Part shown: positions 61,263 to 64,000 of the stretch, piece by piece
How the letters are laid out: each line of letters opens with the position of its first letter
Position numbering within the stretch: position 1 is the stretch's first letter
Source of the DNA: an uncultured delta proteobacterium
GTDB taxonomy: Bacteria; Desulfobacterota; RBG-13-43-22
Length of the DNA stretch: 64,000 bases
Reading direction: 5' to 3'
NCBI GenBank assembly: GCA_963802945.1
Contig: CAWDKY010000032.1
Coordinates: 32,001-96,000, forward strand
The notes under the pieces: generated by a model
Told to the model about the DNA's origin: nothing
The model's database searches: none
What the model saw: only the letters and a program-made list of their open reading frames with translations
Program-made: the position numbers and the translations under genes

Positions 61263-62435
61263 CTACTTACTGAGGAGGCTTCGATATACTTCTACATTTT
61301 GTTTTGCAATCACATCCCAGCTAAATAATCTTGATGCCCTTTCATACAAGCGCCGGCCTATTTCTTCTCTCTGTTGTGAGTCACGGATAAGCCTAAGCAT
61401 TTTTTCTGCCAAGTCGGCCGGGTCATTCTCTTTTACAAATATCCCATCTCCACCGATATACTCCGGCAGGCCAACCGATCGAGAGGCAATAACCGGCACA
61501 GCGTTAGCCATGGCCGTAGTTACTGTCGATCCGGCTTCACTGGTTGTATAGGGGATGACCAAGAATAAACTCTTTTGGTATTCCACCCACAATTCTTGCT
61601 CATTCGTAAAGACATAGTCAAACCATTTAACCTGATCAGTCAAACCCGATTGGGCAATGGGCTCAATTCCCTCTTCCTGACCGTATTCACGATTCAACCC
61701 GTGGATAAGGACTTTTGGGCTAATCCCCTTTTCTTTTAAGATGACCAGGGCCTTTAAAAATAGATCGAAGCCCTTACCATGGGCCAAATGATGCCCGCCG
61801 CAAAAAATGATCTGATCTCGTGAATATGAAGTCAAATTCGGTAGGTGGGTCCCATGGGGGATGACATGAATCTTTTCAGCTTGAATACCCCAGGATTCCA
61901 ATTGTTTTTTCATGGGAAGCGTTTGAACAATAAGGGCATCAGCTTTATTATAGACCCGGTTTAATCGGACTGTAGTCAGCTTGAAATTCTTTAATTTAAA
62001 TTGCTTCTGGATGGAATCGATTTCATGAATGGTGACCACCCGCTTAGACTCGGTCGGGAAAGTCAAAAAAGAAAGCAAGGGTAGAAAGCCGAAAGAGCCC
62101 TGGGTCTGCTGATAATTTAATATAGGCAGCTTCAGGTGTTTCAGGTACCGAGCCCCCTTGAAGACATCCCCCCCATATTCAGGCAGGAGTCGGGCCAGCC
62201 GTTTAATCCTGGACCCCGGTTTGGGGTAAAAATCGGCAAAATGCATTTGGGGAACAAGGGAGAAGGACAAATCGGGGTTAAACGGATCGTGACCATAACA
62301 CCGGCAGTTGGCCGACAGGATATGGACTTTCAGACCTGTTCGTTCAAGGGCCGAAGACAGCCTGTTGGCAAAGTTGCCGCAACTTTTCTCCTTATACCAG
62401 CAAGCAATTATCCCAATTTCCTCCAAGTGATCCAT
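61263..62435 (-). CDS. Glycosyltransferase family 4
   Basis: VTIHE, VIPHG, KG.D.F, AMANAVPVIAS..GLPE motifs. Confidence 0.88.
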   Translation of the reverse strand: MDHLEEIGIIACWYKEKSCGNFANRLSSALERTGLKVHILSANCRCYGHDPFNPDLSFSLVPQMHFADFYPKPGSRIKRLARLLPEYGGDVFKGARYLKHLKLPILNYQQTQGSFGFLPLLSFLTFPTESKRVVTIHEIDSIQKQFKLKNFKLTTVRLNRVYNKADALIVQTLPMKKQLESWGIQAEKIHVIPHGTHLPNLTSYSRDQIIFCGGHHLAHGKGFDLFLKALVILKEKGISPKVLIHGLNREYGQEEGIEPIAQSGLTDQVKWFDYVFTNEQELWVEYQKSLFLVIPYTTSEAGSTVTTAMANAVPVIASRSVGLPEYIGGDGIFVKENDPADLAEKMLRLIRDSQQREEIGRRLYERASRLFSWDVIAKQNVEVYRSLLSK

Positions 62436-63166
62436 TGAACCCCCTTCCTGATTAATGATTTAAGAAACCGCTTTCTTCCTTCGGTTAATTCCGGATTTAG
62501 GATGAGTTGAAGTATTTGATCAGCGACCTCCTCGGGTCTTGCCGGAGAAATATTTTTTAAAAAATCTCTTGGAAAAAGGCTTAACATCTCCGTATCGACA
62601 TATCCCGGGCAGAGGTAAGCAATTTTGATATTCGTAGCGGCCACCTCCTGTGACAAGGCTTCAGTCAAGCCAACCAGCCCGAATTTTGAGGCACAATAAA
62701 CGGCTAGATTAGGGAACCCTCCTTTCCCGGCCCCAGAGACCAAATTAATAATTTGCCCATAACCTTGCCTCAGCATGATCAACAATACTTCGCGCGAGCA
62801 AAGAAAAGCCCCTTTTAAATTGGTATCAATCATTTTATCCCAATCCGCGCTCGTTGTCGAGACCATTGGACCATAAACCAATACTCCTGCATTATTAATC
62901 AGAACATCTATCCGCCCATAGCGATCCACGACCTGAGCGATGAGGCTCTTCACTTCCTTCTCTTGTCGGACATCGGTAGGAATTGGAATACAAGAACCAC
63001 CCTTAGCCTTAATGAGGCCGCAAGCCTTTTCCAAGGCTTCCTTATTCCGTGCCGCCAGAATCACCTGTGCGCCTTTTTCAACCAAAATCAGAGAAGTTGC
63101 CAACCCGATTCCCTTGCTGGCGCCAGTCACAATAATCACTTTGTCTTGGACTAAACTTTTATTCAT
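62408..63166 (-). CDS. SDR family oxidoreductase
   Basis: TGASKGIG, NNAG and YCASK motifs. Confidence 0.93.
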   Translation of the reverse strand: MNKSLVQDKVIIVTGASKGIGLATSLILVEKGAQVILAARNKEALEKACGLIKAKGGSCIPIPTDVRQEKEVKSLIAQVVDRYGRIDVLINNAGVLVYGPMVSTTSADWDKMIDTNLKGAFLCSREVLLIMLRQGYGQIINLVSGAGKGGFPNLAVYCASKFGLVGLTEALSQEVAATNIKIAYLCPGYVDTEMLSLFPRDFLKNISPARPEEVADQILQLILNPELTEGRKRFLKSLIRKGVQWITWRKLG

Positions 63167-64000
63167 TGGCTAAGATGCTCATCATCCCAACAACTGCTCG
63201 AGCGGCCTTAACTAAAAACTTGGGGTTCAGCTTATCCAAGGTATCGTCCGCACTATGCATGTAGGGATTTCTGTAAAAGGAGGTAATGAACACCGCATTA
63301 TAGCCCTTCTCCCAGAAGGATAGTTCATCCCCTCAACCACACTGAGGGCCGATATTTTTTTTGATCCCAATGTCCCCCCCCTTCAAACGGGAATAAATGT
63401 TCTCAACAAACGAGGTATTGGCCGGACGCCCGCCGACCAGTAAAATTTCATTAGGATTTTTAAATCCTGTTTGGACAAAATAAATCGGCTTTTTAATCAT
63501 CTGTTTGGCCAAGTAAAGCCCTTCTCTCAAAAAGCCTGTGCCTTGAGTTTCCCGCCACAAGGCCTTCAAAGAAGGTTGCGTGTATCCGATCGTATCGATG
63601 TTGATGACTCCTTTAATGGAACGACCCTTGGCCGCCAGTTCTTGGGCATAGGCTTGGCTGCCTTTGTGGCCCTGTTCTTCATTGGAAAAAAAGACCCACT
63701 CCACCGTGTTATTACCGGGATTCCCGGCTAAGAATCGAGCCCCTTCCAATAAAACCGCCACCCCTGTGCCGTTGTCGTCGGCCCCGGGGGCCGACCTGTG
63801 GGATTCCCAGCCGGCCGGGTGCGAATCGTAATGGGCGCAGACCACATAAACCGTTTCAGGATCTTTTTTCCCTGAAATGCGGGCCACAACATTTTTCCAT
63901 ATTTTGCCTTCTGCGGTATAAAAGGGGTAGTTTACATCCAAGGTTTTGTACGGTTTGAGTTTATGGTAAAGATAGTCGGCCACTTGATTCTGTTTTTCCC
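63159..64000 (-). CDS. M28 family metallopeptidase-like protein with in-frame TGA at 63333-63335 (candidate selenocysteine); 5' end outside window
   Basis: AHYDS, GADDNGTG, NEE, NID motifs; the same frame continues after TGA as GDELSFWEKGYNAV..NPYMHSADDT to TAA at 63159, overlapping the SDR start. Confidence 0.85.

Follow-up and report, generated by a model that had tools for sequence, protein, structure and literature searches.

An in-frame UGA codon predicted to encode selenocysteine in a family of M28 metallopeptidases

The stretch of DNA analysed here (the window) comprises 64,000 nucleotides, C32:32001-96000, where C32 is contig CAWDKY010000032.1 in the 4.37 Mb, 72-contig genome of an uncultured delta proteobacterium of the Desulfobacterota (assembly GCA_963802945.1). 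At the window edge its minus strand carries a gene for an M28 metallopeptidase with one TGA codon in frame, and we predict that this codon is read as selenocysteine (Sec). The strand reads CAG TGT GGT TGA GGG GAT GAA CTA TCC TTC TGG GAG AAG GGC TAT at this place. From the window edge the frame is open for 221 codons up to the TGA, then for 57 codons up to a TAA at 63161-63159. The full gene in contig C32 has 336 codons, and codon 279, in the motif C-G-TGA-G-D-E, is its single in-frame TGA. An earlier reading of the window, made from the letters alone (the sequence-only reading), had described the codon context, the 57 open codons and the overlap of the TAA with the next ATG in the same way.

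The gene product begins with MKIKLWLLVFLWVFFQQSPAVASS, a hydrophobic signal-like segment, and belongs to family M28 by its match to the Pfam model Peptidase_M28 (PF04389; 112.7 bits for a cut-off of 21.3). The co-catalytic ligand set His, Asp, Glu, Asp, His and the catalytic Glu are all present, as H113, D132, E164, E165, D192 and H305 (Table 1). E164 is invariant in all four family alignments; E165 is invariant in two of them and conserved in at least 90% of members in the other two. Two relatives (P0123, P0128) have Glu in place of the fifth-ligand His. These roles follow the literature on the Aeromonas aminopeptidase, in which His256 is the fifth metal ligand. The sequence-only reading had assigned the fifth ligand to a His encoded beyond the TGA; the His of NPYMH does align with the known ligand, and we correct its place to residue 305 (window 63257-63255). 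A hydrophobic N-terminal segment was found in 120 of 124 family members, with a lipobox-like motif in 17. The predicted product is an exported enzyme of the di-zinc aminopeptidase type within family M28, with peptidase activity.

Table 1. Features of the M28 metallopeptidase locus (window coordinates unless a contig is named).
Feature	Position	Strand	Basis
M28 metallopeptidase gene, codons 58-336 and TAA stop	63159..64000	-	Pfam PF04389, 112.7 bits
M28 gene, codons 1-57, including signal-like segment	contig C32 96001-96169, past window end	-	
In-frame TGA, codon 279, predicted selenocysteine	63333..63335	-	same-column TGA in 8 DNA sequences; Cys in 8 full-length homologs
Cys277 codon (TGT), Cys of the C-G-U motif	63339..63341	-	at least 90% conserved in alignment; possible selenenylsulfide partner
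57 codons after the UGA (GDELSFWEKGYNAV...NPYMH...), made only with UGA decoding	63162..63332	-	conservation; alignment to solved M28 enzymes
His305 codon (NPYMH)	63255..63257	-	aligned with His256 of Aeromonas aminopeptidase, NPYMH / NPRIH
His113 codon (AHYDS), metal-ligand motif	63831..63833	-	invariant column
Asp132 codon (PGADDNG)	63774..63776	-	invariant; aligned with bridging Asp of the di-zinc site in Aeromonas aminopeptidase
Glu164-Glu165 codons (NEEQG), general base and metal ligand	63675..63680	-	aligned to Aeromonas aminopeptidase
Asp192 codon (NIDTIGY), metal ligand	63594..63596	-	invariant column
Upper hairpin UCCUUCU-GGG-AGAAGGG	63304..63320	-	stem 12 nt and loop 19 nt after UGA; invariant in 7 sequences, including synonymous sites
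Two-tier element: 10-bp lower stem (with G and A of the UGA), internal loop, 8-bp upper stem	63280..63334	-	RNAalifold; weakly supported
Short-chain dehydrogenase gene, downstream	62408..63166	-	Pfam adh_short, 210 bits; ATG inside last peptidase codons, 8-nt overlap

Over the 57 codons that follow the TGA, six sequences share 58-93% amino acid identity, with no indel and no stop; over the 60 codons before it the same measure gives 62-93%. Counts of synonymous and non-synonymous differences are alike on both sides. The codons after the TGA encode a stretch that can be aligned with the C-terminal portion of M28 enzymes of known structure, its NPYMH-S-ADDT corresponding to SPYIH-S-ADDT of fungal LapA and to NPRIH-T-TQDT of the Aeromonas enzyme. 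A product stopped at residue 278 would lack the C-terminal part of the M28 fold, and the codons downstream of the UGA are predicted to be translated.

The same TGA was found in the DNA of relatives. Six carriers were present among 401 genomes sampled from the phylum, all belonging to the window's genus, and every match showed one TGA. Across all 21 genomes of the class, carriers amount to six of the 14 genomes of this genus, and no full-length family match was found in the seven genomes of the three other genera. Seven distinct DNA sequences (the window's own, five relatives and one metagenome contig), with protein identities of 60-92%, read QCG-TGA-GDE. A second sample of 391 genomes yielded one further carrier, G472, from another family of the phylum (locus L140, GC 62%). 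Over 332 residues the L140 protein shows only 33% identity, and its gene has the same-column TGA in VVRDDCG-TGA-GDEGSFW, followed by 62 open codons. The column is therefore occupied by TGA in 8 of the 8 family members with DNA examined (seven genomes and one metagenome contig), close and distant ones alike, with 57-62 codons following. Its recurrence in eight distinct DNA sequences shows that the same-column TGA is there by more than chance. TGA is otherwise an ordinary stop in this genome, where it closes 570 of 1725 open frames of at least 300 codons. Logan contigs of the sequencing runs X1 and X4 cover the codon, with no difference at 63333-63335 among the rows listed; runs X2 and X3 cover other parts only. 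The matching share is at most 0.17 per run, and no RNA was present among the runs with matching contigs. Metagenomes scanned with the generic pattern PGADDN[GA][ST]G gave, among the 80 matches listed, only one in the family (L038); a scan of genome contigs gave three family members and four generic M28 genes, and viral contigs scanned with P0054 gave no match. The spread of the gene is patchy, with the window's genus at 6/14, its sister genera at 0/7 and the class of G472 at 1/77, a distribution that fits gain and loss or transfer.

Protein databases gave a corresponding picture. One hundred of the 120 best matches to the read-through protein end in C-x exactly at the Sec column, with typical lengths of 277-278 residues; two are fragments and, of the remaining 18, two end one residue earlier, one ends N-G and 15 are longer or generic M28 proteins. 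Where identity is at least 49%, 49 of 51 matches end at the column; the exceptions are the two fragments, and Trp read-through is absent from this range. A third search, started from a Cys form, added 78 new matches, 55 of which end at the column. The stop-column entries bear the NCBI-derived names 'M20/M25/M40 family metallo-hydrolase', 'M28 family metallopeptidase' or 'hypothetical protein'. Eight full-length proteins (P0123, P0124, P0127, P0129, P0166, P0205, P0273, P0313) have Cys at the column, in C-G-C-G-D-E-G. When a library clustered at 50% identity was searched, the best 150 clusters included 39 that end at the Sec column; in this list Sec forms account for at least 39 clusters and Cys forms for six. 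Trp (DCG-W-GDE) occurs at the column in P0125 (330 residues) and P0270 (a 107-residue fragment), protein entries in which a real TGG and a TGA translated under code 4 by a metagenome gene caller are indistinguishable. P0270 matches the last 47 residues of the column-ending P0081 at 72% and then continues W-GDEGSFWDEGYDAIYVNSYYKNPYHH, which implies that the frame goes on in this distant group too. One read-through protein has Val at the column and another has Ser. The caveat of the sequence-only reading, that a TGG could have changed to TGA, finds no support in the window's clade, given the 51 matches with at least 49% identity; both Trp proteins lie in the distant group.

At this site the S-D-H of ordinary M28 proteins is replaced by G-D-E in the Sec family. 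A FastTree tree of 152 rows, computed with SH-like support and with many long-branch warnings, separates the family from seven generic M28 proteins with a support of 91. The Cys forms are scattered over two or three places in it, and we draw no order of events from them. One subclade (P0102, P0110, P0139, P0156, P0161, P0163, P0208 and others) ends in C-A, C-V, C-P or C-T, not C-G; in its full-length relatives (P0128, P0131) the column is occupied by Val or Ser and the Cys is missing. Sec seems to have been lost there to residues other than Cys. A further entry, P0326 (285 residues, 'M28 family metallopeptidase [Candidatus Hodarchaeota archaeon]'), comes from an Asgard metagenome-assembled genome and ends at the Sec column, in ..DDKCK. 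Unless it is a contamination, it hints that the family, and perhaps also the Sec codon, occurs in archaea, whose Sec insertion sequence (SECIS) elements are located in the 3' untranslated region.

The genome encodes the means to insert Sec, a point the sequence-only reading had listed for checking. We found a tRNA-Sec (74.3 bits, anticodon tca), selA (627 bits), selB on the minus strand (G000 contig C30:178945-180834, L009) and selD (G000 C17:415477-416388, L018), which itself carries a single in-frame TGA (motif G-U-A-S-K). At the known CxxU site, TGA is also present in two genes of the MvhD/FlpD type (C15:41905-42276, L131; C17:32489-32716, L133). The motif is C-H-W-U in the first, where a hairpin CUGGA-GUU-UCCAG follows 22 nt after the UGA, and C-Q-H-U in the second, which has further stops and probably another frameshift. 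No Sec-type formate dehydrogenase was found in the genome, the best match to TIGR01553 reaching 119 bits for a cut-off of 814 and containing no stop, and none of its AhpC-TSA genes has an in-frame stop. tRNA-Sec is present in six of the seven carrier genomes, and in none of four Bacteroidota genomes whose M28 genes read S/A-S-D-H at the site. The selB gene is present as one open frame of 646-682 codons in four of the five same-genus relatives searched (G472 not included), the fifth genome being 85% complete. In the assembly under study the gene has two frameshifts (frame 1 to 0 to 1), near short G and C runs, which could reflect assembly indels or a loss of SelB by the strain. The M48 peptidase gene next to the M28 gene is likewise frameshifted here, and its halves share one frame in the relative's locus L023; the frameshifts in selB and in the M48 gene are therefore likely, although not proven, to be assembly indels.

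The UGA is followed by a hairpin with the stem TCCTTCT/AGAAGGG and the GGG loop described in the sequence-only reading. A consensus of seven sequences computed with RNAalifold has 18 pairs. According to the Fig. 2 legend of PMC13188914, the model of bacterial SECIS elements has an apical loop of 3-9 nt and an upper stem of 4-16 bp, with a G within the first two positions of the loop, usually in the form N1-G-[G/U]-N-N2. The same legend gives a spacing of 16-37 nt between UGA and loop and a minimum free energy (MFE) of -7.5 kcal/mol or lower. The hairpin fits this model in its loop (GGG or UGGGA), its stem (7 bp in the window, 8 bp in relatives), its G pattern (U-GGG-A) and its spacing (19 nt). 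Its MFE is -6.5 kcal/mol at 40 nt, -8.1 at 45 nt and -20.3 at 60 nt, so that the window's own hairpin passes the energy rule only with the longer pieces (45 and 60 nt); the relatives give -8.4 to -12.7 kcal/mol at 40 nt. In selD, also in this genome, C-G closes a CGGGA loop whose GGG begins 17 nt after the UGA.

The stronger signals for this hairpin come from comparison between relatives. Synonymous differences are entirely missing in 8 of 355 seven-codon segments, for a median of 0.37. Six of the eight precede the start, in a part of the alignment made up of near-identical rows only; the two others, the only ones within the gene, cover S-F-W-E-K-G, which are the hairpin codons. L038 shows a compensatory change from G-C to A-U in the hairpin. 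The distant L140 keeps a stem UCCUUCU/AGAAGGA with the loop GGUC, and its 3' arm derives from S-E-G (TCA GAA GGA), not from E-K-G, one base off-frame. We took the L140 hairpin from its sequence and fold: MAFFT placed no one-base gap in the loop, and the pair counts understate L140. In the non-Sec M28 gene L026 the identical peptide SFWEKGYNA is encoded by AGT TTT TGG GAA AAG GGA and folds at -0.9 kcal/mol, compared with -8.1 to -12.2 kcal/mol for the eight TGA forms. The gene is thus predicted to contain a SECIS-type hairpin that is under constraint at the RNA level.

The conserved UGA, the conserved downstream frame, the Cys homologs, the Sec machinery and the constrained SECIS-type hairpin together lead us to predict that codon 279 is decoded as Sec, to which we assign a probability of about 0.88. 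The hairpin UCCUUCU-GGG-AGAAGGG, located within the coding sequence at 12-29 nt from the UGA, would be bound by SelB with its Sec-tRNA(Sec). This would let the ribosome insert Sec and translate the next 57 codons, adding His305 (the fifth metal ligand) and the C-terminal helix, and the full-length enzyme would be exported. The sequence-only reading had made the same proposal and had named what would overturn it: reads with TGG, close homologs with Trp and never TGA or Cys, or a genome without Sec machinery. The tests came out for Sec on each count: TGA stands at the column in close and distant homologs, Cys in eight full-length CGCGDE proteins, independent assemblies and the Logan contigs of two other runs give no listed difference at the codon, and selA, selB, selD and tRNA-Sec are encoded in the genome.

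Several observations weigh against this reading. Covariation in the hairpin is thin: seven closely related sequences offer a single compensatory pair and three G-C/G-U pairs, together with two broken cells. Its stability is unremarkable against shuffled sequences, z-scores being -0.04 to -1.8 for 40-nt folds (-0.04 for the window's own) and -0.4 to -2.9 for 60-nt folds. Codons for Ser-Phe and Glu/Lys-Gly are partly complementary by nature, and a similar hairpin is found in a few M28 genes without Sec, L056 among them. Across the genome, hairpins with a GGG loop show no excess after TGA over TAA and TAG (33, 27 and 15 matches, about 2 per 10,000 codons each). The list of TGA hairpins obtained in this way contained no other convincing gene from which a SECIS consensus for the organism could be drawn, and an Rfam search of window positions 63000-63500, at E values up to 10, gave four chance matches only, the best at 18.6 bits. 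The roughly 190 database proteins that end at the column are protein sequences, which do not give the identity of the stop codon, and the selB of this assembly is broken.

Other explanations of the codon have to be set against these data. If the UGA were a true stop, the product would have 278 residues and the 57 codons would be a dead remnant or a separate small gene. Gene callers and the NCBI annotation do end the gene there, giving 278-residue entries, and a separate 54-residue open reading frame starting at Met283 was called in some contigs (P0271). However, the downstream frame is open and equally conserved in eight sequences, down to 33% identity, and contains the His aligned with the fifth metal ligand. 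Position 283 is mostly Leu or otherwise different from Met, which leaves no general start, full-length Cys homologs exist, and the coding strand shows nothing terminator-like after the UGA; we regard termination as very improbable. An error or a recent nonsense mutation, from TGG or TGC to TGA in a decaying gene, would be in keeping with an assembly that has frameshifts in selB and in the M48 neighbour. These other lesions are indels, whereas the TGA codon keeps the frame, and an identical TGA in eight distinct sequences from independent assemblies, together with the Logan contigs X1 and X4, refutes this explanation, whose residual likelihood is negligible.

If a suppressor, or a near-cognate tRNA for Trp, Cys or Arg, read the UGA and the hairpin merely slowed termination, the downstream codons would be translated without Sec. 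The Trp residues of P0125 and P0270, the frameshifts in selB and the unremarkable stability of the hairpin could all be cited in favour of this explanation. Yet carriers of the gene nearly always have tRNA-Sec (6/7) and intact selB is found in four of the five same-genus relatives searched. The hairpin combines the G-G/U apical pattern with the spacing of bacterial SECIS elements, like that of selD in the genome, and the homologous residue in the eight full-length forms is Cys, the usual counterpart of Sec. Leaky read-through would, moreover, not hold UGA fixed across such divergence. We consider near-cognate reading hardly probable, and retain decoding as Sec.

The genes around the peptidase differ in how far they are shared. 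Directly downstream, at window 63159-63166, the peptidase TAA lies within the first codons of the dehydrogenase gene (ATGAATAA), an overlap that suggests translational coupling, which would need ribosomes that have passed the UGA. The dehydrogenase also follows the peptidase directly in L023 and L025, and in these two loci it is itself followed by a GT4 glycosyltransferase gene. An M48 peptidase with TPR repeats, by its domain make-up presumably BepA-like (a name we recall), is encoded directly upstream of the Sec-M28 gene in six of six homologous loci of the window's clade. In the window's genome this gene lies just past the window end on the minus strand (L022 2186-3626, which is contig C32 96185-97625) and is split, with its N-terminal part in one frame and its C-terminal M48 and TPR part in another. 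The gpmI gene precedes the M48 gene in all three loci with enough upstream flank (L023, L024, L025). L140 has none of the M48, gpmI, dehydrogenase and GT4 neighbours. From these neighbouring genes, a role in envelope protein turnover may be suggested for the window's clade.

Both phmmer and the family profile align C-G-U-G-D-E with Y-G-C-S-D-H of fungal LapA (7oez) and with A226-C227-S-D-H of the Aeromonas enzyme (1amp, 3b3t). In the Aeromonas enzyme, passages of PMC4012986 place this loop directly over the di-zinc site, equate it with loop V of DapE and describe it as very rigid through the C223-C227 disulfide. The same passages report that in DapE the residue preceding S-D, Thr325, is placed directly over the metals, that T325A and T325S lower kcat 25-50-fold and that T325C is inactive. 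We infer that Sec279 would be located where Cys227 stands, in the loop that overhangs both metal ions, just before a conserved x-D motif, like Thr325 of DapE. The site near the active centre that the sequence-only reading had proposed is supported by the alignment to Cys227 and by these passages of PMC4012986.

Cys277 is kept in at least 90% of members, and a Cys277-Sec279 selenenylsulfide may tentatively be proposed, at somewhat less than even odds in our judgement, to stiffen the lid loop and give it a lid or switch role. Such a bond would take the part of the Cys223-Cys227 disulfide of the Aeromonas enzyme and would hold better than a disulfide in a reducing, anoxic habitat; its reduction would free a selenolate above the zinc ions, which could bind them and switch the enzyme off. 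Two points speak against this role. There is no partner Cys at -4, where position 275 is Pro (GPQCGU); the nearest Cys is at -2, and any bridge would therefore have a different geometry (C-x-U). In addition, the basis for a selenenylsulfide or switch is a sequence alignment and passages of a single paper (PMC4012986). In the main alternative, Sec would be a metal ligand or a catalytic residue that alters the metal content or the chemistry, a proposal that concerns the role of Sec and not its decoding. The family also exchanges S-D-H for G-D-E beside the Sec, the aligned DapE residue lies above the metals and its T325C form is inactive (in the passages of PMC4012986 already cited), and several selenoprotein families use Sec as a metal ligand (PMC13188914). 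On the other side, the family retains each of the five canonical ligand columns as well as the catalytic Glu, which leaves the site complete without Sec, and the near-invariant Cys277 two residues away is what would be expected of a redox pair; we hold a metal-ligand role to be possible, if doubtful.

To our knowledge, nearly all known bacterial selenoproteins are thiol-type oxidoreductases or redox-metal binders. The sequence-only reading knew of no characterised M28 selenoprotein, which agrees with the main texts and the NCBIfam models that we consulted. A review of May 2026 contains what is called the most comprehensive inventory, with 119 families and subfamilies (PMC13188914, Table 1), and this table has no peptidase, M28 or PF04389 row. 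The word 'peptidase' is missing from the main texts of the BSepDB paper, the deep-Sep paper, the Olavius symbiont paper and a 2022 review (PMC9312934), which names only a trypsin-like serine protease. Full texts retrieved for selenoprotein together with M28, metallopeptidase, aminopeptidase or peptidase contained nothing relevant, although supplementary tables (deep-Sep, BSepDB candidates) could hold the family. No model of NCBIfam release 20.0 was passed, the best being LapA at 68.4 bits for a cut-off of 600, and no selenoprotein model fits. Selenoprotein lists and genome annotation thus appear to miss what we predict to be a new, large, Sec-dominated M28 subfamily, decoded by the ordinary bacterial mechanism. 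About 190 entries are annotated as proteins of 270-290 residues without the last metal ligand, and a Sec-flagged family model would correct them. If true, the presence of Sec in the active-site lid of a hydrolytic zinc peptidase would widen the known use of selenium and offer a natural test case for Sec beside a Lewis-acid metal centre. The dominance of Sec over Cys forms could help to explain a preference for Sec outside the classical redox enzymes. It is a bolder and rather unlikely proposal that this large Sec-dominated family is the first selenium-containing metallopeptidase, in which selenium over the di-zinc site would act as a redox- or metal-operated lid switch of an exported peptidase, by which anaerobes could set its activity according to ambient redox conditions, with the Asgard member hinting at a crossing between domains.

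Among solved proteins, the best relative of the family profile is the leucyl aminopeptidase of Aeromonas (Vibrio) proteolytica (AAP; 1amp, 1rtq, 3b3t), with E values of 2e-35 to 6e-35. Both enzymes have the ligand motifs H-x-D, ADD, EE, x-D and NPxxH, and AAP is a secreted single-domain enzyme. In AAP the Sec279 column is filled by Cys227 (A-C-S-D-H), in the disulfide-held loop over the di-zinc site that the passages of PMC4012986 describe. The window's enzyme differs in having Sec for Cys, a partner Cys at -2 instead of -4 (C223), G-D-E for S-D-H and a segment from the fourth ligand to the loop that is longer by about 20 residues; the two enzymes align only in parts and at low identity. DapE (family M20) belongs to the same clan and shares the di-zinc site, with Thr325 of loop V, before S-D and above the metals, described in those passages as needed for turnover. 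Reading G-T-S-D of DapE against G-U-G-D would put Sec279 at Thr325, a register derived from printed primer sequences and the AAP alignment, with no structural superposition; unlike the exported peptidase, DapE is a cytoplasmic dimeric desuccinylase. Among predicted selenoproteins, the UshA-like protein of ocean metagenomes (COG0737, NF041198) is, like the window's, a predicted metal-dependent hydrolase with CxU and no thiol oxidoreductase (PMC2398784; PMC13188914, Table 1). Compared by description, it is a phosphoesterase of other fold and chemistry, with no sequence relation to M28. The GOS trypsin-like and MucD-like proteases are also secreted, with predicted Sec at the place of a conserved Cys (PMC2398784; the trypsin-like one also in the 2022 review PMC9312934), and are missing from Table 1 of the 2026 review (PMC13188914). 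These are serine proteases, however, known as 9 and 2 sequences against 128 and 12 Cys homologs (PMC2398784), whereas in the window's family Sec forms far outnumber Cys forms.

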